A stretch of DNA of 8,235 nt. Origin: a virus (taxonomy: Duplodnaviria > Heunggongvirae > Uroviricota > Caudoviricetes). The notes beneath the pieces are model-generated. The model was not told the origin of the DNA. It saw only the letters and a list, made by a program, of their open reading frames with translations, and did no database searches. The DNA lies in the IMG/VR virus record IMGVR_UViG_2651869696_000011. One strand, 5' to 3'. The position numbers and the translations under genes are program-made. Shown in pieces: positions 2-8,235 of the stretch (its first letter is position 1; each line of letters starts with the position of its first letter).

Positions 2-478
2 AAGCAGAAAAAGCTTATTATGCTTCCATCGGAAACGATGATCTGGCAGCCTGAGTTCACAGATAAAACACTCTCCAGGAAACCCGGGGCGGTTCAGGCC
101 GCCGGTCGTTATATTCGTTCGCATGAAGCCGTTCAGCACATCAGCATCCGCGACCGGCTGAATGATTTTATGCAGCAGCACGGCACAGTACTGGCGGCCG
201 CACTGGCACCGGAGCTGATGGGCTACAGTGAGCTGACGGCCATTGCCCGAAACTGTGCCATACAGCGTGCCACAGATGCCCTGCGTGAAGCCCTCCTGTC
301 CTGGCTTGCGAAGGGTGAAAAAATTAATTATTCCGCACAGGATAGCGACATTTTAACGGCCATTGGATTCAGACCTGACGCGGCTTCGGTGGATGACAGC
401 CGTGAAAAATTCACCCCTGCGCAGAACATGATTTTTTCGCGTAAAAGTGCGCAACTGGCATCACGTCAGTCTGTGTAA
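2..478 (+). CDS. psu: Psu-like polarity-suppression / capsid-decoration protein, C-terminal ~158 aa; 5' end lies outside the window
   Basis: Reading frame is open from the window edge (no stop between position 2 and the first ATG at 20), stop at 476-478. It is immediately upstream of, and transcribed toward, the cos site, as psu is in P4. Identity is inferred from context and recalled similarity to P4 Psu, not from an alignment. Confidence 0.55.
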   Translation, partial: KQKKLIMLPSETMIWQPEFTDKTLSRKPGAVQAAGRYIRSHEAVQHISIRDRLNDFMQQHGTVLAAALAPELMGYSELTAIARNCAIQRATDALREALLSWLAKGEKINYSAQDSDILTAIGFRPDAASVDDSREKFTPAQNMIFSRKSAQLASRQSV

Positions 479-514
479 AATTCCCCGAAAATCCGCCCGT
501 TTTTACTGAAAAAA

Positions 515-543
515 GCCATGCATCGATAAGGTGCATGGCTTTG
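515..543 (+). terminator. Putative rho-independent terminator downstream of the psu-like gene
   Basis: Perfect 8-bp stem gccatgca (515-522) / tgcatggc (532-539) with a 9-nt loop, followed by tttg; lies 37 nt after the stop codon. Confidence 0.45.
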
Positions 544-569
544 CATGCGTTTCCCTGCCTCATTTTCTG

Positions 570-597
570 CAGACCGCGCCATTCCCGGCGCGGTCTG
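570..597. other. Perfect 11-bp stem-loop in the cos-proximal spacer
   Basis: cagaccgcgcc (570-580) / ggcgcggtctg (587-597) with the 6-nt loop attccc; no T-tract follows, so it is not a classical terminator. Possibly part of the terminase recognition region near cos. Confidence 0.4.
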
Positions 598-642
598 AGC
601 GTGTCAGTGCAACTGCATTAAAACCGCCCCGCAAAGCGGGCG

Positions 643-661
643 GGCGAGGCGGGGAAAGCAC
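643..661. other. P2/P4-type cos cohesive-end sequence (cosN)
   Basis: Exact 19-nt string ggcgaggcggggaaagcac, which I recall as the cohesive-end sequence shared by P2, 186 and P4. It lies between the psu-like gene and the integrase-proximal cargo, as in P4. Confidence 0.6.
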
Positions 662-724
662 TGCGCGCCCGGTTGGTGCTCGTTACTAATGTTTTTTGCG
701 CCCGAGCACCGTCGGGAAGGGGCT

Positions 725-733
725 GGGGGGGGG
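725..733. repeat. G9 homopolymer inside a G-rich run (711-750: ggg, gggg, ggggggggg, gggg)
   Basis: Read directly from the sequence; the tract spacing fits a canonical G-quadruplex motif. Intergenic. Confidence 0.5.
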
Positions 734-896
734 ATAGGGGAGGTGCCTGACGTCGCGCGGTAATGTTGGTAAGTGTGCCGCTGATGGCTTCTGAGGGGAG
801 TGGTAAATAGCCGCCTTTCGACGGTGTAGTGGGGAGAGTATTGCTTACAAACGTAATGAAATTGTTTGAGTAGCTAGGCTACTGCATAGGATTATT

Positions 897-925
897 TTGT
901 TCTGTTAATATATCCGTTAATATAG
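897..925 (+). promoter_or_regulatory. Putative promoter and tandem 9-bp direct repeat upstream of the cargo operon
   Basis: gttaatata repeated at 904-912 and 916-924 (12-bp register); ttgttc (897-902) and atatag (920-925) are a possible -35/-10 pair with a 17-nt spacer. Lies in the AT-rich leader about 35 nt before the start codon at 959. Weak, sequence-only call. Confidence 0.25.
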
Positions 926-958
926 ATAGATTGATCCAATTGAGTTTAAGGAATGAGT

Positions 959-1342
959 ATGTTTCAGATATCAGCTGGAGTGTTCTTTGATTTAGATAAA
1001 ATAGAAAAACACGATGGCACATTTGTTTTTTATTCAAATGTTGATGTGTCTTTCTCGGTGGAAAACACCTCCCCTCTTTTTAAAGCAAATAAAATAAGTC
1101 ATGATGGTATAAACTGTTATGTGGTAAACTATACTCTCCTGACCGAAAAACCAGAACGAATTGAAGCTGGAGTCGTAGTTAGGGCTGGTGATGAGGATTA
1201 TAGGCAACAATTTATTTTATTATGGGAATTCTATTTTGATTGTGTGGCTAGAGTAGAAAAAGAATCGGTTAAAAAATATGTGCATTATCAAATTTTAATA
1301 AACATCACTCAAAAATTGCGCTTGAAGTTGCCCCATATTTAG
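959..1342 (+). CDS. Hypothetical protein (127 aa), first gene of the AT-rich cargo operon
   Basis: ORF 953-1342; the second in-frame ATG at 959 has a good SD (aagga at 947-951, 7-nt spacer), whereas the ATG at 953 is too close to it. AT-rich codon usage. No family recognised. Confidence 0.6.
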   Translation: MFQISAGVFFDLDKIEKHDGTFVFYSNVDVSFSVENTSPLFKANKISHDGINCYVVNYTLLTEKPERIEAGVVVRAGDEDYRQQFILLWEFYFDCVARVEKESVKKYVHYQILINITQKLRLKLPHI

Positions 1343-2661
1343 TGGAGATTAACCGAAGAGTTTCATTTGATGATGTCTCTGGGTTTTCTGCTTTTATTAA
1401 AGATGTAGTGAATCTAAATAGATCTGCCTTTAAATCTTTAATGGCAGCGTTAAAAATAATTAGTGATTCAAAAGAATCATTGTCAACCAACTTTGACCTG
1501 ACTTATTCCATGTTAGTCTATGCCTTGGAGTCTTTGTCTCAAAGAAATGATAACTATAAGTCTGATTGGGATGACTACGATCAAAAAACCAGAGGTGAAT
1601 TAGAGTCTGTATTTGAGCATATGCCTGGTGAGGATGTTTGTAAAATTAAATCAATACTTATTGAAGGCAAACAATTCAGATTACAAAAAAGGTTCAAAGA
1701 TTTTATACTGAAAAATCTTGAAGAAAATTATTTCAATGAAACAGAGAGATATCCAATCCGCTATAGCTTCCTTAGTAGAGCTTTAGATAATTTATACAAA
1801 ATCAGGTCTTCTTTTGTCCATGAGCTTAAGCCACTTGATGCAATGATCTCGAAAGCCTACAATCCTGTTGGTGATTGTCTGGTTCTTTTTGGCGAACCTC
1901 ACTTCAGTTACTCTGGATTGCTTCGACTTCTTCGCCATGTGATAATAAATTTTTGCCGTAAAAACTACAGTCAAAAAAGAGAGTATGTTAATTGGGTGAT
2001 GGAAACATCGGGTGTAATGGTTGCAGAGATATCTGCACAATATTGGCTCTGGAATGCAGACGGATTTACAGCTAAAAGTATAGCGAAGTGGTTTAGTGAA
2101 TACCTAAATATGTTAAATTTAGGCGAAGTCACTGATTTGCAGTCTATCATGGACAAAATTGAGATAATCTATGACCAATCCAAAAAAGAATATAAAAATG
2201 GGTTGTTGTATTTTTATTTCTTATATAACTTAATGCATAATGGAAATAAGGGTGAATGGCTTGAGTTTGCGAACAAGCGAAGTTCTATACTTGTTTGTGA
2301 TATATATTGGTATTCATGCTCTCCATATTTATATAAATCATTTACTAATGTTTCAAATGGTATTGCTGATATAAAAACATTGAGAAACTTTTTGTCTTGT
2401 TTTAACGAATATGATAAAAATAAATTTAAGCCAAATCGTTTAAATCTCCCTGCAATGACCGAAGTAATTATGTTGGCTTGCGCAGCAAATTCATTCTTCA
2501 GAATTGGAATGTATCAAGACTATGTTTTAATGGGCAATAGAGCGATGAGAGAAATTGCTTCAGTAAAAGATGTATTTTATTATATAAAAGAACGATTAAG
2601 TAATTCACAACTTATTGAATTGGACGAGTGCTTGAGATTGTATAGAAAAAAGGGGGGCTAA
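1342..2661 (+). CDS. Hypothetical protein (439 aa), second gene of the cargo operon; contains an Rx4H (HEPN-like) motif
   Basis: Long uninterrupted ORF with AT-rich codon usage. The only possible start before the first internal ATG (1441) is GTG at 1342, which overlaps the upstream stop (TAGTG) and has no clear SD, so the start is uncertain. The motif R-SSFV-H is at codons 155-160 (nt 1804-1821). Confidence 0.8.
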   Translation: MEINRRVSFDDVSGFSAFIKDVVNLNRSAFKSLMAALKIISDSKESLSTNFDLTYSMLVYALESLSQRNDNYKSDWDDYDQKTRGELESVFEHMPGEDVCKIKSILIEGKQFRLQKRFKDFILKNLEENYFNETERYPIRYSFLSRALDNLYKIRSSFVHELKPLDAMISKAYNPVGDCLVLFGEPHFSYSGLLRLLRHVIINFCRKNYSQKREYVNWVMETSGVMVAEISAQYWLWNADGFTAKSIAKWFSEYLNMLNLGEVTDLQSIMDKIEIIYDQSKKEYKNGLLYFYFLYNLMHNGNKGEWLEFANKRSSILVCDIYWYSCSPYLYKSFTNVSNGIADIKTLRNFLSCFNEYDKNKFKPNRLNLPAMTEVIMLACAANSFFRIGMYQDYVLMGNRAMREIASVKDVFYYIKERLSNSQLIELDECLRLYRKKGG

Positions 2662-2669
2662 CCCCTTTT
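2648..2669. terminator. Putative bidirectional terminator at the convergent junction of the cargo gene and the integrase
   Basis: 8-bp stem aaaagggg (2648-2655) / cccctttt (2662-2669) with the 6-nt loop ggctaa, A-tract on one side and ttttatttttaa on the other. Both stop codons (2659-2661 plus strand, 2658-2660 minus strand) lie in or beside the loop. Confidence 0.4.
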
Positions 2670-3854
2670 ATTTTTAACGTATTCACCCCACCAATCCATC
2701 AATTCAATTCGCTGCACGAGATAAGTAGAACGATTGTATGCTTTTCTAACTTCATTTTTATCACTGTGGGCTAAGGCAGACTCGATAACATCAGGATTTA
2801 ATCCAGCTTCATTCATGGCTGTACTTGCTATTGAACGTAATCCATGGGCAACTAATTTTCCGCCAAAACCAATACGTTTTAAAGCTGCATTTGCAGTCTG
2901 ACTGTTCATTGGTTTCTTTGGGTCATTCCGACTCGGAAAAACATATTCACGATGAGCACTAATAGGCTTCATCACATTAAGAATCTCTAATGCCTGAGAT
3001 GATAGAGGAATTATGTGTTCCCGTTTAGCCTTCATCCGTTCGGCAGGAATCGTCCAGAGCTTTGCATGAAGATCGATTTCTTCCCACCGAGTACTGGAGG
3101 CTTCAGAAGGGCGCACAAGAGTCAGGAGTTGCCATTCAATTAGACAGCGAGTCGGGATAGACAGATTTGACATGACTAAAGAACGCATCAGCTTTGGTAA
3201 TTCTTCAGGTCGAAGCGTCGGCATGTTTTGTTTTTTTGGCTTTTCGAAGGCCATGCCAACACCTGATGCTGGGTTTGCATCAATCAAGCCAGTGTTAACC
3301 GCATAAATCATTATTTCGTTAATGCGTTGCACCAGACGACGTACAGTCTCTAATGCCCCACGAGCTTTGACTGGCTCAAGTGCTTCGACCAATGTTCTAG
3401 CTTTGATCTGCTGAACGGGCATCTCACCAACGGCGGGGAATACATCTTTTTCCAATGAGCGCCAAATATCTTTTGCATAATCAGGGGTAACACTTTTGCT
3501 TTTGAGCTGAAACCAATTAGCGGCGACCGTCGAGAAAATACTGTCCTGTGCGATTTGCTGCTGTTCCTCTGCAATTTCAGCTTGAATTTGCGGGTCAATT
3601 CCGTTGGCTAACAAGGAAAGGTAATCCGCTCTTAAGCGTCGGGCGTCAGCAAGTGAAAGGGCTGGGAAGGCTCCTAGCCCCATCATTGTCCGTTGCTTTG
3701 TTGCCGGACGTTGATAACGGAAACGCCATAACTTCTTACCGTTCGTTTTAACGAGTAGAAAAAGACCATCGCCATCATGCAACGTTAGATCCTTTTCTAA
3801 CGCTTTAGCGCGCAGTACTTCTGTGTTGGTCAGGGGGCGTGTCGTTCTTGCCAA
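2658..3854 (-). CDS. int: P4-family tyrosine integrase (CP4-57 IntA-like), 398 aa
   Basis: N-terminus MARTTRPLT...DGDGLFLLV...LWRFRYQRP and C-terminal HGLRSIAST...ALAH...VRKAYNRSTYLVQR are characteristic of P4-type integrases. Its 5' end faces the ssrA-derived att core, the usual tRNA/tmRNA-int arrangement. Confidence 0.9.
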   Translation of the reverse strand: MARTTRPLTNTEVLRAKALEKDLTLHDGDGLFLLVKTNGKKLWRFRYQRPATKQRTMMGLGAFPALSLADARRLRADYLSLLANGIDPQIQAEIAEEQQQIAQDSIFSTVAANWFQLKSKSVTPDYAKDIWRSLEKDVFPAVGEMPVQQIKARTLVEALEPVKARGALETVRRLVQRINEIMIYAVNTGLIDANPASGVGMAFEKPKKQNMPTLRPEELPKLMRSLVMSNLSIPTRCLIEWQLLTLVRPSEASSTRWEEIDLHAKLWTIPAERMKAKREHIIPLSSQALEILNVMKPISAHREYVFPSRNDPKKPMNSQTANAALKRIGFGGKLVAHGLRSIASTAMNEAGLNPDVIESALAHSDKNEVRKAYNRSTYLVQRIELMDWWGEYVKNKRG

Positions 3855-3935: not shown

Positions 3936-3973
3936 GATTTAGCTGGATATCCTCGGACAACGGTAGACACAAA

Positions 3974-4005
3974 AAAGCCCGCAGAGCTTGTGCTATGCGG
4001 GCTTT
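3974..4005 (-). terminator. Rho-independent terminator (minus-strand sense) downstream of the tmRNA 3'-end copy
   Basis: Stem agcccgca (3976-3983) / tgcgggct (3996-4003) with a 12-nt loop; on the minus strand it is followed by a run of six T (complement of aaaaaa at 3971-3976). Confidence 0.5.
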
Positions 4006-4038
4006 CAGGATTTCTCCGGACGTATCCGGAAGAGCAAG

Positions 4039-4065
4039 TGGTGGAGCTGGCGGGAGTTGAACCCG
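4039..4065 (-). other. Attachment-site core: 27-nt copy of the ssrA (tmRNA) 3' end without the rest of the gene
   Basis: tggtggagctggcgggagttgaacccg is the reverse complement of the tmRNA 3' terminus (...CGGGUUCAACUCCCGCCAGCUCCACCA). The match breaks off at 4066 and the sequence to the right is an AT-rich protein-coding gene, so this is a partial att repeat, not a functional ssrA. Confidence 0.7.
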
Positions 4066-4103
4066 TGTCTGAAAAATATTAACCTGTTGTTTTAATTATA
4101 TAT

Positions 4104-4883
4104 TTATCTGAACATGGCGTTTGCGGCGCTTTTGCGTATCTTCTCTAGACCTTTTGTAGTCCATTTCTCTGGTACAGGTGTAAACCGTAGTGCAAAATCT
4201 GCCTCCATATTATCACCACTGAAACGTGCCACTCCACGTTCCAATTTTGTTTGCCAAGTGACTTTTTTAGTTTTACCCTCTATATCTTGATATTCAATAA
4301 TTAATTTTGGACCAGTGAATGATGAAGAACCGACTAATTTAAGTCTATGTGAAAGATATGCTATATTCAATAGAATATCAATTGCCGCGGTTGGTACAAA
4401 AATGTTTTTTGACTTCTTATCTATACTATATGGTAACGAAAAATCAATATCGTAAGGTGTCGATAAAGTATTGTACATATATACTTTTCTTTCTTTTATT
4501 ATTTTGAATATTCCATACTGGGAGTCGGTTGTAAAAGATTTATCTTCTTTTTTGAATTTTTTCGAAAACAACTCTAAATATAGATTTATGTTTTTTTTAT
4601 AATTAAAATCCCAATGATATCTAAGTGAAATTGCCGCCCCCAATCCTATGTTTGAAAATTTTGTTTGTGGAAGCGTAGGGGCTTGTAAGATATCAACATG
4701 AAAACCGTTGAAATCGTTAACATTCATCTTGATATTTAAAGTGTCTATCACTAAATTGGGTTTATAAGAGAGCCTTCTTTGAAATATCGTTAACCATATT
4801 GCATATAATGCAGCAATTGCTGAAATGAAAGTACCAACTGAAGATATGTAGGTGATTAGTTTGTCGAATGTAATTGTAATCAA
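4104..4883 (-). CDS. Hypothetical membrane-anchored protein (259 aa), a moron between integrase and att
   Basis: Strongly AT-rich ORF with a predicted N-terminal transmembrane helix (ITYISSVGTFISAIAALYAIWLTIF). The only start upstream of the first internal Met (codon 53) is TTG at 4881-4883, preceded by GGGGA at a 7-nt spacing. No family recognised. Confidence 0.65.
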   Translation of the reverse strand: MITITFDKLITYISSVGTFISAIAALYAIWLTIFQRRLSYKPNLVIDTLNIKMNVNDFNGFHVDILQAPTLPQTKFSNIGLGAAISLRYHWDFNYKKNINLYLELFSKKFKKEDKSFTTDSQYGIFKIIKERKVYMYNTLSTPYDIDFSLPYSIDKKSKNIFVPTAAIDILLNIAYLSHRLKLVGSSSFTGPKLIIEYQDIEGKTKKVTWQTKLERGVARFSGDNMEADFALRFTPVPEKWTTKGLEKIRKSAANAMFR

Positions 4884-4924
4884 CTTTAAATCCCCGATTT
4901 TAAAAATGCGGGGATTATTAAATA

Positions 4925-6097
4925 TTAATTATGATTATGCAAATGATTTATCGATGTAAAGTTATCATACTCTTTAAGATACGAACCATAGTGCCTGAAA
5001 AGCATCTCCGGCCCTTTATGCCCCATTTGAGCTGCAAGCCAAAACAGGTTTGCTCCTCGGCTGATATGGCTGGTGGCGAATGTATGCCTGGTTTGATATG
5101 GGTTTCTGTAACGAATACCTGCTTTTCGCAATGTTGGCACCCATGCTTTTTTCCTAATTGCATCAGCACTTGCCCAAGGCTTATTGGTCTTTGGATCTTC
5201 AAAGACAGTAGCATCCTTCATGAATGTAAATGGCTTCTGATTTATCAGCGCCAACATTGCCTCTTCTGTCAGTTCAACTTTCCGAGTACCTGCTTTTGTC
5301 TTTGTCCCTTTGATAACACCGACAACACTTGCGCTCTGGACATGGGCAGTTTTTCCAACAAAGTCGATATCACGCCATCGAAGGGCACATAATTCAGAAC
5401 TACGCAGGCCTGTATGTATAGCGAACCGGAACAGATTTTCCCATTGTTTGTTTCCGGCTGCTGCTAGTAATGCATCAACTTCTGCTGGTGATAGCGGATC
5501 AACTACGTAGCTGCTTTCTGCTTCTGACTTATCACTTTGGTAGCGCGAAGCTGTTACTAACGATACGGGGTTAATTTGAAGTACCCCATCGGTCACGGCT
5601 TCATCAAGTGCTGACCGCAGGAAAGATAACTGGTTGCGAATGGTTTTTAAGGTCGTTTTCTGGCTTTGAATCCACGCTTTCAGGGTTGCTGGTGTTAATT
5701 CACTTGCAGGGCAAATGTGAAGTGAGGCTAACGCACTACGGCATTTTTTATAACCACCGATCGTGGATGGTGAAAGTTTCCTCGTTTCGCAGATTTCAAG
5801 GTATTCGTCCAGGTACATTTTTACCGTTTTGCCTGCAGCAGCATTACCAAAAATTTTCAAACGAGCAGAACGGGGAAAATATTCCGCATAAATGAATGTT
5901 CCCCTTTCGATCTTATTATGAATTTCGCCGAGTGTGCGCTCAGCGTATTTAATGTTCTTTGGTGTTACTTCCAGATTGGAAAGAGGCTCACGACATTTAA
6001 CTCCTTTGTAGGTGAAAGTTATATTGATCGTTTCGCCCTGGCGGTGTTTCCTGATTGTTACGCCGCGCGGTAGTTTGAGCAGTTTTGTCTGGCCCAT
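4925..6097 (-). CDS. int: Tyrosine integrase (390 aa)
   Basis: C-terminal catalytic region carries the recombinase residues (TGLRSSE; RHTFATSH; MGHKGPEMLFRHYGSY). ATG at 6095-6097 is preceded by gtgagg. Its 5' end overlaps the 3' end of the excisionase gene by 40 nt. Confidence 0.9.
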   Translation of the reverse strand: MGQTKLLKLPRGVTIRKHRQGETINITFTYKGVKCREPLSNLEVTPKNIKYAERTLGEIHNKIERGTFIYAEYFPRSARLKIFGNAAAGKTVKMYLDEYLEICETRKLSPSTIGGYKKCRSALASLHICPASELTPATLKAWIQSQKTTLKTIRNQLSFLRSALDEAVTDGVLQINPVSLVTASRYQSDKSEAESSYVVDPLSPAEVDALLAAAGNKQWENLFRFAIHTGLRSSELCALRWRDIDFVGKTAHVQSASVVGVIKGTKTKAGTRKVELTEEAMLALINQKPFTFMKDATVFEDPKTNKPWASADAIRKKAWVPTLRKAGIRYRNPYQTRHTFATSHISRGANLFWLAAQMGHKGPEMLFRHYGSYLKEYDNFTSINHLHNHN

Positions 6098-6264
6098 TTT
6101 GCAACCTCACTAAGATCAATCCACCTCTCCTTAACGCCTTCAACCTTTAAAACCTGAACACCTTCACGCCAAACACCGCGCTGTACACGTTTGTTTATTG
6201 CTTCAGGAGTTTCGCCAGTTTCTTTGCAATAAGTTGAGATTGGAACACAATCGAGGTTCAGCAT
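6058..6264 (-). CDS. xis: Excisionase (Xis-like, 68 aa)
   Basis: Small basic protein immediately upstream of and overlapping the integrase, the lambda-like int/xis arrangement. The ORF track starts at GTG 6276, but the ATG at 6262-6264 has a better SD (ggaga, 5-nt spacer). Confidence 0.65.
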   Translation of the reverse strand: MLNLDCVPISTYCKETGETPEAINKRVQRGVWREGVQVLKVEGVKERWIDLSEVAKWARQNCSNYRAA

Positions 6265-6323
6265 ATGTTTCTCCACTTAGCCCGCTGCACACGGGCAGTA
6301 ATATCAAATTCCAGTCCTGATAA

Positions 6324-6539
6324 TTAATTTTGTTCCCTGGTTGCTACCTGTTTTATTGGCCTGATGCTGTCCAGTAGCAGACGGCGACGCATGTTAGGTG
6401 CACCCCAACGGTAACCAGTCTTTTTGTCGTAGGATTCACAACGTCCGGCAACCCAGGACGTTTCAGTGGAATGTAATTTCATCCGCTTTTCACCGTCTCG
6501 GGTGATAACAATTCCTGTATGAGTTTTTATCACGCTCAT
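6324..6539 (-). CDS. Hypothetical prophage protein (71 aa)
   Basis: Its ATG overlaps the upstream gene's stop (ATGA at 6536-6539), indicating translational coupling. No family recognised. Confidence 0.5.
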   Translation of the reverse strand: MSVIKTHTGIVITRDGEKRMKLHSTETSWVAGRCESYDKKTGYRWGAPNMRRRLLLDSIRPIKQVATREQN

Positions 6540-6898
6540 TTCTTAGTCTCCGGTGCTTTCGGTATTACTGCCCAGTGAGTAATATTGACGTTTTCAAGGT
6601 CCCCGACTTGAAATGTCCACTGCCATTCTCCGGTTTCTTTTTGCCCCCATGTGTACCAGAGAGAACGCCAGCCAATCAGCCAGCCTTCTCCGTTAGCATC
6701 AAATAACAGAACACTTTCATTTGCTGGCGGCAGTTCAGCTGACACTGGTATTACTTTGTTTTCCAGTGCTGCACATTTAGCTTCAAGCGCATCAAATTTA
6801 CGCACCAGGTATTCAGCATCCGTTTCATTCACTTTCAGATCTCGCGGTACACATTTCCCGCGCAGAAACCCTTCCATTTCGAAAACATTCATGCGCAT
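6536..6898 (-). CDS. DUF551-like phage protein (120 aa; YfdS-like)
   Basis: Trp-rich C-terminal segment (GWLIGWRSLWYTWGQ...ITHWAVIPKAPE) resembles the DUF551 signature found in lambdoid prophage early regions. Its start ATG (6896-6898) lies 7 nt inside the upstream HD gene (ATGCGCATGA). Confidence 0.55.
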   Translation of the reverse strand: MRMNVFEMEGFLRGKCVPRDLKVNETDAEYLVRKFDALEAKCAALENKVIPVSAELPPANESVLLFDANGEGWLIGWRSLWYTWGQKETGEWQWTFQVGDLENVNITHWAVIPKAPETKK

Positions 6899-7425
6899 TT
6901 GTGTAACTCCGATAATTCGTTAAAGCGTTCCATAAACATCCCGTAGGCATGGCCTGGAGCCAGTGGAATCACGTTGAATATCTCTGTTGCCGGGATACCT
7001 TCCAGCACAGGCCAGAAAGAGCCATCATCAAGCCCGAGATCGCGGCGTTCGGTTGCCAGCATGATGAGATCGGCATATTTCACGGGTGTACTCATAACCG
7101 GGGGTAACCCGTATTTCTCACGGATTACGGCGTCTATTTTTTCTTCCATCCGTTTATAGTCAGGAAGAAGGCGTTTCAGTGGTGCGGGGATGTCCTGGCA
7201 ATACGCTTCTGTTGCATCATGCATTAACGCTTCAAAAGCAAACTCCTGCGGTACCAGCTGGCTGCAAAGCACCGCATGTTGGGCGACGCTGTAGAAGTGT
7301 GAAAGATGACCAGCAAAGCGACAGATATTTGAAAGGGAAACCGCGATATCGTTAATAACGATGTCGTCTTTATTTATCTTGTCATAATAAAAATGCTTCC
7401 CGGAAAAAGTTTTAATAAATGACAT
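6889..7425 (-). CDS. yfdR: HD-domain phosphohydrolase, YfdR-like (178 aa)
   Basis: H...HD motif (RFAGH, SVAQH, MHDATEAY) typical of HD-superfamily enzymes. The ORF track begins at TTG 7506, but the ATG at 7423-7425 (MSFIKTF...) has a strong SD (gtggaga, 5-nt spacer) and gives the recalled 178-aa length of E. coli CPS-53 YfdR. Symbol is from memory, not a search. Confidence 0.7.
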   Translation of the reverse strand: MSFIKTFSGKHFYYDKINKDDIVINDIAVSLSNICRFAGHLSHFYSVAQHAVLCSQLVPQEFAFEALMHDATEAYCQDIPAPLKRLLPDYKRMEEKIDAVIREKYGLPPVMSTPVKYADLIMLATERRDLGLDDGSFWPVLEGIPATEIFNVIPLAPGHAYGMFMERFNELSELHKCA

Positions 7426-7545
7426 TTCGTTCTCCACTTTATATGCGCTGCACTGCGCTGAATTTTGGGAAAAGGAAGCCCTCGCCATCCGGCGATTATT
7501 AAGCAATTACGTTTCAATAGATGCCCCCGCAGGGGCGGTTAGTTT

Positions 7546-7740
7546 CTCCACAAAACAGAGAAGAACACCTGCGGTGACCGCCGCCCGGATGGATTGGGTT
7601 ATGAGCCCGTCGTCCGGTGATGCTCTTCTCTGTTTTGTAAAAAGAGCGGTACCAGCCGGAAGCAAGGGTACAAACTGGTACCGCCAGGACTACACACAGC
7701 ATAAAGTTGTGGTGCCGGGTGCCTCCCGGTGCCTGGCGAA
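7546..7740. other. GC-rich structured non-coding region (candidate ncRNA or cis-regulatory element)
   Basis: 15-bp inverted repeat acaaaacagagaaga (7550-7564) / tcttctctgttttgt (7624-7638) enclosing 59 nt. Perfect 10-bp hairpin gcggtaccag (7646-7655) / ctggtaccgc (7675-7684) with a 19-nt loop. Three ggtgcc direct repeats (7711-7733). The region is open in several frames on both strands with no RBS-supported ORF, which is typical of GC-rich non-coding DNA. Confidence 0.4.
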
Positions 7741-7938
7741 GGTTGCACACCAGACGGGTGGGTATCCACAGAAGGTCGACTGTCAGCCTCAACCTTAACC
7801 CGCGTGCGCTGAGCCGCATTCACCACAACGCTAAGGATTCTCTTTGGTTGAAAATACTTAGCTGTTATGTGCCTGTCTTTTCACCACTTCAGGCTCGGTG
7901 GTATCCTTTTAAGCCCGTATACATAAAAGGAAAATCAA

Positions 7939-8148
7939 ATGACTTTTGATGAAAAAGAACTTGATAATGCAATTAATAAAATCATCGTAACGTCGCTCTT
8001 TTCCTGTCTCAGCGACACTCAGCAGAAACAGTTCTACGAATCGGCTTTCAACATGATCGAGCGTTGTTGTTTCTGCGATGCCGACGAGTTACCTGAAAAA
8101 ATCAGGAAACAGTTGGCTGATGCTCTTCGAGTGCGACTTTCTGGGTGA
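7939..8148 (+). CDS. Hypothetical protein (69 aa), divergent from the int-xis operon
   Basis: ATG at 7939 preceded by aagga (7927-7931) with a 7-nt spacer. No family recognised. Confidence 0.5.
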   Translation: MTFDEKELDNAINKIIVTSLFSCLSDTQQKQFYESAFNMIERCCFCDADELPEKIRKQLADALRVRLSG

Positions 8149-8235
8149 TGCTGCCAACTTACTGATTTAGTGTATGATGGTGTTTTTGAGGTGCTCCAGT
8201 GGCTTCTGTTTCTATCAGCTGTCCCTCCTGTTCAG

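Follow-up and report, generated by a model that had tools for sequence, protein, structure and literature searches.

The window, an 8,235-nt stretch of DNA from a virus of the class Caudoviricetes (IMG/VR record IMGVR_UViG_2651869696_000011), carries on its minus strand the genes yfdR, yfdS, orf71, xis and int in this order, with a structured RNA element upstream of yfdR and a fragment of ssrA beyond int (Table 1).

Table 1. Features of the window, with positions counted from its first letter
Feature	Position	Strand	Assignment and basis
ssrA (tmRNA) 3' end, GGGTTCAACTCCCGCCAGCTCCACCA	4045-4074	-	att-site copy at the int end; Rfam tmRNA fragment
int	4925-6097	-	390 aa, lambda-type tyrosine integrase; Pfam Arm-DNA-bind_2 (E 5e-23) and Phage_integrase (E 4e-16); PGAP 'site-specific integrase'
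xis	6058-6264	-	68-aa excisionase (72 aa from the alternative GTG at 6276); PHROG 2917 'excisionase' (E 2e-45); GGAG 6 nt upstream of ATG-6264
orf71	6324-6539	-	71 aa, small early-left phage protein; PHROG 1226
yfdS	6536-6898	-	120 aa, C-terminal DUF551 domain
yfdR	6889-7425	-	178 aa, putative HD-domain 5'-deoxynucleotidase / DnaA-binding protein of the CPS-53/SfV type
GC hairpin, GCCCCCGCAGGGGC	7522-7537		point of absence of the yfdP-yfdQ cassette; alignment with GPEC1035, flagged stem-loop
Long hairpin, ACAAAACAGAGAAGA...TCTTCTCTGTTTTGT	7548-7636	-	~25-bp stem, between the sRNA-like terminator and yfdR
STnc100/PasD-family sRNA-like element	7637-7851	-	Rfam RF02076; upstream of yfdR on the same strand

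Gene overlaps and the prophage end

A first-pass annotation of this DNA had described three genes that overlap start to stop and end 47 nt before an excisionase gene, which in turn overlaps the integrase gene. Direct reading of the sequence agrees with this description in all but the spacing. The 10 nt shared by yfdR and yfdS, TCATGCGCAT on the plus strand at 6889-6898, read ATGCGCATGA on the minus strand, and the yfdR stop codon TGA (6889-6891) lies within the first three yfdS codons, ATG CGC ATG. The overlap between yfdS and orf71 is 4 nt (plus strand TCAT at 6536-6539, ATGA on the minus strand), and that between xis and int is 40 nt, from the int ATG at 6097 to the xis stop at 6058. A separate GGAG precedes the ATG of each of yfdR, yfdS, orf71 and xis (for xis, ATG-6264) by 6-8 nt, the distance being 6 nt for yfdR.

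The spacing between orf71 and xis depends on the start codon assigned to the latter, as the end of orf71 at 6324 lies 47 nt from GTG-6276 and 59 nt from ATG-6264. Because GTG-6276 falls within the Shine-Dalgarno sequence (GTGGAG) of ATG-6264, and because ATG-6264 is the start chosen both by PGAP and by a 356-member cluster of 68-aa 'excisionase' proteins, the gap is more likely 59 nt, and the earlier figure stands only for the less well supported GTG. The 10-nt and 4-nt stop/start overlaps are of the kind that defines translationally coupled pairs, the yfdR/yfdS overlap has the same length of 10 nt in K-12, and a sequence scan found no strong or convincing terminator between yfdR and int. Overlaps of 4 and 10 nt are commonplace in phage operons, and those observed here are real and statistically unremarkable.

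A search with window positions 5900-7900 as the query, with the resulting identity to E. coli strain C1 extended by exact matching, shows that C1 is 100% identical to the window over 4501-8000. In C1 the genes mark the left end of a prophage of lambdoid type, which also carries a LexA-like (S24) repressor gene (cI/ymfK), cro/ymfT, ymfL, genes for replication, Q and lysis and, on the border of the 26-kb sequence examined, an HNH endonuclease gene. In genomes that lack this prophage, the match to the window ends at 4074 and overlaps annotated ssrA; the prophage is thus inserted in the ssrA 3' end. A tRNA scan found no tRNA. We further note that a P4-like satellite remnant or island adjoins the prophage at ssrA and that, within the window, one gene of the neighbouring element is split.

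Identity of the genes and their mosaic relatives

The first-pass annotation had called the product of yfdR a YfdR-like HD-domain protein, an assignment against which it would have counted a low identity to YfdR or the loss of HD residues, and it had proposed alignment with K-12 YfdR, YfdS and YfdT. The assignment is borne out by a gapless, full-length alignment with K-12 YfdR in which 175/178 residues are identical (98%) and the three substitutions (I149M, E170D and H175R) all lie outside the HD motif. The protein also belongs to PHROG 318 (E 4e-109), and PGAP calls the gene yfdR in strain C1. The residues of the HD site are intact: H50, H69-D70, D119 and the catalytic Glu, E73, do not vary when the protein is aligned with phage homologues that are 36-67% identical to it, and these residues match their counterparts in Atu1052 (PDB 2GZ4; residues 18-174, E 9e-13). 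Atu1052 and the diverse phage homologues were used for this comparison because a MAFFT alignment of YfdR with YfbR aligned the HD pair and E73 and put both the first His and the final Asp out of register. YfdR shares with E. coli YfbR and Atu1052 the HD-domain fold family and an H...HD...D metal site. It nonetheless differs from YfbR in that their identity is only 23%, the Pfam YfbR-like match is partial, both the Pfam and the NCBIfam YfbR models score below their cut-offs, and its nucleotide affinity is reported to be much below that of YfbR (PMC4776307).

YfdR-family proteins are found in 333 phage records, from many unrelated phages both temperate and lytic; lytic and jumbo phages that infect Caulobacter, Bacillus, Stenotrophomonas, Vibrio and Rhizobium are among them. 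This wide distribution argues for a general role in nucleotide metabolism, as a dNMP phosphatase, rather than for one specific to E. coli DnaA. The most likely role of YfdR is that of a metal-dependent 2'-deoxynucleoside 5'-monophosphate phosphatase, and family distribution together with annotation suggests that it serves phage biology as a nucleotidase. It is only for K-12 YfdR that a phosphatase activity on dNMPs and an interaction with domain I of DnaA are known (PMC4776307); the allele here differs from it at three residues.

The second gene product also aligns with its K-12 namesake, with 114/118 identical residues (97%), and belongs to PHROG 583 (E 1e-81). Its residues 50-117 match Pfam DUF551 at 20.7 bits, just below the cut-off of 22 bits, and its source name is 'DUF551 domain-containing protein'. 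The proposed alignment with K-12 YfdT, on the other hand, indicates that the third gene is unrelated, since BLASTP returns only a 19-residue chance match (E = 0.49), and orf71 was rejected as a YfdT. It falls instead in a PHROG family of unknown function (E 6e-34) with homologues in mEp460, in Stx2a phages and in Yersinia and Klebsiella phages. No match to orf71 was found in Pfam, NCBIfam and PDB sequence searches, and for orf71 and YfdS together nothing significant was returned by Pfam, NCBIfam, PADLOC and PDB sequence searches. TorI was likewise rejected as the identity of the excisionase: BLASTP gives no local alignment at E <= 100, and the protein belongs to PHROG 2917 instead.

The closest known arrangements are those of the K-12 prophage CPS-53 (KpLE1), with the order yfdP-yfdQ-yfdR-yfdS-yfdT-torI (PMC4776307), and of phage SfV, with the order int-xis-orf28(YfdT)-orf29(YfdS)-orf30(YfdR)-orf31(YfdQ)-orf32(YfdP)-...-cI (NC_003444), whose orf29-31 were named as homologues by the authors of the K-12 study (PMC4776307). 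The locus here resembles CPS-53 in the near identity of yfdR and yfdS and their overlap, in the orientation of the cluster and in the presence of an excisionase gene at its end. It differs from CPS-53 in lacking yfdP and yfdQ, in a third gene unrelated to yfdT, in an excisionase unrelated to TorI, and in an adjacent integrase that is specific for ssrA and not argW; moreover, whereas CPS-53 is a remnant, the element here looks like a complete prophage. With SfV it shares ~95% DNA identity over the yfdS/yfdR/STnc100-like region as well as gene order and position relative to cI, but SfV has orf32/orf31 (yfdP/yfdQ), the YfdT homologue orf28 and a different xis/int module.

In SfV, in K-12 and in the majority of E. 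coli genomes, yfdR is immediately preceded by yfdP-yfdQ, which point the same way. Compared with GPEC1035, SfV and K-12, this cassette of ~1.3 kb is missing here. In the alignment with GPEC1035, the sequence left of the 7522-7537 hairpin corresponds to the yfdQ-yfdR spacer and that on its right to the region upstream of yfdP, which has a related hairpin. Among 5426 complete E. coli genomes, 457 have the yfdQ-less junction and 2673 the yfdQ-yfdR junction, which makes the absence of the cassette a common polymorphism and not a private deletion. It is conceivable, though improbable, that in this frequent yfdPQ-less variant YfdR and YfdS have a role independent of YfdQ.

Variation is also found on the other side of the gene pair. 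The ~95% DNA identity to SfV, SfII, SfIV, mEp460 and other phages extends over yfdS, yfdR and the non-coding sequence before yfdR, and the similarity to SfV breaks off precisely at the stop codon of yfdS (query position 646, window 6545); in a prophage of O111:H8, entirely different genes follow yfdR. The pair yfdR-yfdS thus recombines freely with different xis/int modules, which speaks against a dedicated coupling of a replication modulator to excision, and these comparisons show the link of yfdR-yfdS to xis-int to be positional and mosaic. The proposal of the first-pass annotation that the prophage couples a host-replication modulator to its excision genes is made unlikely by this variation in xis/int partners and by the absence of yfdQ.

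One could also regard the genes as decaying remnants of a cryptic prophage that have no current function, as K-12 CPS-53, where they were first named, is a cryptic remnant and a split gene lies in the element next door within the window. We consider this very improbable, given that all five ORFs are intact and have good Shine-Dalgarno sequences, that the identical C1 prophage keeps its cI, cro, replication, Q and lysis genes, and that near-identical genes are carried by the isolated phages SfV, mEp460, SfII and SfIV.

Promoter and structured RNA upstream of yfdR

In scans that covered sigma-70 consensus sites only, no sigma-70-like site with at least 8/12 matches was found on the minus strand at 7850-7426. 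The sole weak promoter-like site from the relaxed scan (at least 8/12) lies at 7879-7851, ahead of the STnc100-like element. A sigma-70-type promoter directly upstream of yfdR was rejected, as neither scan, including the relaxed one at 8/12, revealed one. Within 8001-8235, strain C1 departs from the window at one position or more. It has a promoter TTGACA-16-CATAAT with 11/12 matches at L001 14605-14632, equivalent to window positions 8504-8531. This pL-like promoter lies past the window end, ~1.08 kb upstream of yfdR and directly after the cI terminator, and has between its hexamers a 17-bp inverted repeat, TGTATCTCAAAGGTACA, which is a repressor-type operator. The pattern TGTAY-N7-RTACA occurs in three copies in the 26-kb C1 locus, the other two being both in the cI-cro spacer. 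Sequence and position identify the C1 upstream site as a pL/OL-type promoter. A 91-aa ORF that follows pL was considered as an N-like antiterminator and discarded, being by inspection neither arginine-rich nor N-like.

Between this promoter and yfdR lies a structured stretch, of which the minus-strand fold of 7420-7860 has z = -4.4. The stretch includes both hairpins of Table 1, and its upstream part matches the full-length RF02076 model at 42.1 bits (E 1e-6) against a gathering score of 47, and since this is under the threshold we call the element STnc100-like only. The same element is found upstream of yfdP in SfV and GPEC1035. At its 3' end are a 13-bp stem and a U-run that form a terminator at ~7640-7692. 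PGAP labels the stretch a 'frameshifted hypothetical protein'; a prophage sRNA-like element is more likely. The strong terminator at ~7640-7692 sits between pL and yfdR, and no N-like protein was recognised. Because this terminator intervenes and an N-like antiterminator was not identified, uninterrupted transcription from pL into yfdR is something that we infer. We hold with little confidence the idea that the ~430 nt between pL and yfdR form a cis-acting gate, either an attenuator or a processive-antitermination RNA, and not just a stand-alone sRNA gene; in that doubtful case, the gate would set how much leftward transcription reaches yfdR-yfdS-orf71-xis-int.

These observations bear on the claim of the first-pass annotation that YfdR heads the operon. 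In a fuller form, this reading would have yfdR open a translationally coupled operon driven from just upstream of the gene, an operon that deliberately couples a DnaA-targeting inhibitor of host replication to excision. A separate start would be favoured by the terminator-like structure ~215 nt upstream of yfdR, and the gene is preceded by a 210-nt untranslated spacer; in the divergent O111:H8 prophage the annotated genes that follow cI begin with yfdR, and YfdR binds DnaA in vitro (PMC4776307). Against these points stand the lack of a sigma-70-like site at 8/12 or better on the minus strand at 7850-7426, the operator-controlled promoter 1.08 kb upstream in strain C1, and the placement of yfdP-yfdQ immediately upstream of yfdR and in the same orientation in most relatives. 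The absence here of yfdQ, which is needed for the initiation block, and the variation in xis/int partners between phages count against the intended coupling as well. We therefore do not place yfdR at the operon head, and consider an own operon with this purpose quite unlikely.

A probable early-left accessory module and the reported link to DnaA

We read the region, with a probability of about 0.8, as the promoter-distal portion of an early-left (pL-type) operon, belonging to an E. coli lambdoid prophage of the SfV/mEp460/e14 kind that sits in the 3' end of ssrA, with the minus-strand order [pL/OL beyond the window]-small ORF-STnc100-like RNA-yfdR-yfdS-orf71-xis-int. According to this reading, the LexA-like (S24) repressor would keep pL off in the lysogen, and its SOS-induced cleavage would derepress the promoter. 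The leftward transcript, insofar as it passes the sRNA-like terminator, would then run through yfdR-yfdS-orf71 and on into xis-int, so that accessory and excision proteins would be produced at the same time. The overlaps of start and stop codons, with each Shine-Dalgarno sequence placed in the preceding gene, may lead to co-translation of the three small genes in roughly fixed proportions, and the YfdR phosphatase would adjust the nucleotide pool early in lytic growth.

The first-pass annotation had also referred to a report that E. coli prophage YfdR binds DnaA and inhibits replication initiation, and the paper indeed exists. It describes binding that depends on Phe46 (Noguchi and Katayama, 2016; PMC4776307) and is directed to domain I of DnaA (PMC4776307). 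In that study multicopy yfdQRST blocks replication initiation, the minimal set for the block being yfdQ and yfdR with either yfdS or yfdT, and constructs without yfdQ failed to suppress hda-185 (PMC4776307). No phenotype resulted when yfdQRST was deleted, and the authors caution that the initiation block is possibly an overexpression artefact (PMC4776307). Of the initiation-inhibiting set, yfdR and yfdS are present here and yfdQ and yfdT absent, and no YfdQ ORF is found in the window. As yfdQ was required in the published assay, the replication-block phenotype cannot simply be transferred to this prophage. A block of host initiation by the yfdQ-less variant is possible and is not expected from the published data, and binding of DnaA by the YfdR encoded here is a possible secondary effect. 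More generally, the published DnaA result should not be automatically transferred to yfdQ-less prophages, which make up ~15% of yfdR loci in complete E. coli genomes.

It could still be that YfdR and YfdS alone, at the levels reached on induction, are enough to bind domain I of DnaA and to slow initiation in the host, the function having been kept without yfdQ. The frequency of the yfdQ-less layout with an intact yfdR (457 genomes) is in line with this, as is the persistence of the layout in a diverged prophage whose junction is 92% identical. The failure of yfdQ-less constructs to suppress hda-185, the lack of a deletion phenotype and the artefact allowed for by the authors (PMC4776307) point the other way, and the YfdR family is widespread among phages of hosts with unrelated DnaA contexts. 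We regard a retained initiation-slowing function as rather unlikely and favour the early-left accessory module with a nucleotidase.

Such a module is already known, and the feature is an ordinary mosaic module of enterobacterial lambdoid prophages comparable to lambda exo-xis. Its importance beyond annotation is small: the SfV gene order, reportedly published by Allison and colleagues, has been out since 2002, and YfdR-DnaA binding since 2016. The exo-xis region of lambda and Stx phages (orf60a, orf61, orf63, orf73, ea22 and ea8.5) similarly consists of small accessory genes that are early, pL-distal and placed before xis-int. In lambda this block is reported to inhibit host DNA replication and to influence the lysis-lysogeny outcome (PMC3824215). 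The lambda genes are N-antiterminated, whereas an N analogue was not identified here, and the two regions differ in gene content, with no sequence homology except DUF551. This domain is found also in an Ea22 variant (PMC10834534).

Movement of yfdR and its upstream cassette

In a diverged lambdoid prophage of E. coli O111:H8 strain 7-55 62A (locus L012, 2451-3520), no gene is annotated between the repressor gene and yfdR, and a different set of genes comes after it, namely a 116-aa ORF, DUF4752 and an Ea22-like gene. This gene order shows yfdR moving as a single-gene module. The ~1.3-kb yfdP-yfdQ cassette, which lies directly upstream of yfdR in most relatives, varies by presence and absence between two related GC hairpins (7522-7537 in the window). 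Of the complete E. coli genomes (5426), 2673 carry the yfdQ-yfdR junction and 457 the yfdQ-less one.

Features of the window
Feature	Position	Strand	Match or location
Psu	20-478		Pfam, E 4e-62
129-aa ORF	953-1342		between Psu and P4-type integrase
439-aa ORF	1342-2661		between Psu and P4-type integrase
P4-type integrase	2658-3854	-	
ssrA 3' end (GGGTTCAACTCCCGCCAGCTCCACCA), then ssrA terminator	3971-4114	-	
259-aa ORF	4104-4883	-	PHROG 7259, E 2e-85 (unknown function)
Hairpin, ~25-bp stem (ACAAAACAGAGAAGA...TCTTCTCTGTTTTGT)	7548-7636	-	between sRNA-like terminator and yfdR
STnc100/PasD-family prophage sRNA-like element	7637-7851	-	Rfam RF02076
Predicted 69-aa ORF	7939-8148	+	PHROG 3311, E 8e-47

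An sRNA-like element upstream of yfdR

The RF02076 match is full-length and scores 42.1 bits (E 1e-6), below the Rfam gathering score of 47. Its 3' end is a terminator with a 13-bp stem followed by UCUUUUU, and a weak promoter-like site (AAGACA-17-TATTTT), ending at 7851, stands in front of the element. The ~25-bp-stem hairpin directly follows this terminator, upstream of yfdR. The sRNA-like element is also present in Shigella phage SfV and in strain GPEC1035, where it lies upstream of yfdP; GPEC1035 keeps the hairpin as well, there in front of yfdP. The equivalent DNA in strain C1, an E. coli genome identical to the window over 4501-8000, is annotated by PGAP as a 'frameshifted hypothetical protein', and a related sequence in e14 is overlapped by the ymfH annotation. 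The predicted 69-aa ORF is antisense to the left operon; its 3' end is overlapped by a predicted 91-aa minus-strand ORF (window 8102 to ~8377), which PGAP calls instead in strain C1.

Prophage and P4-like island at ssrA

The ssrA 3' end is present here with its terminator after it, and the lambdoid prophage and the P4-like island are therefore arranged in tandem at ssrA. An Rfam 'IsrM' match over the same interval looks spurious (31 bits vs a threshold of 376). The P4-like satellite remnant (20-3854) adjoins ssrA. Its 129-aa and 439-aa ORFs together correspond to one 567-aa protein in other E. coli, and the gene is thus split in the window. In P4-like satellites, defence genes are known to cluster in the stretch from psu to int. 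In PADLOC the 439-aa ORF weakly matches the 'Cas13-ApeA' entry, in its ApeA-like domain (E 4e-6). On the lambdoid side, the 259-aa ORF has no match in Pfam, NCBIfam or PADLOC, and its N-terminal stretch is hydrophobic as judged by eye. Its location, with int on one side and the attachment site on the other, is typical of morons.
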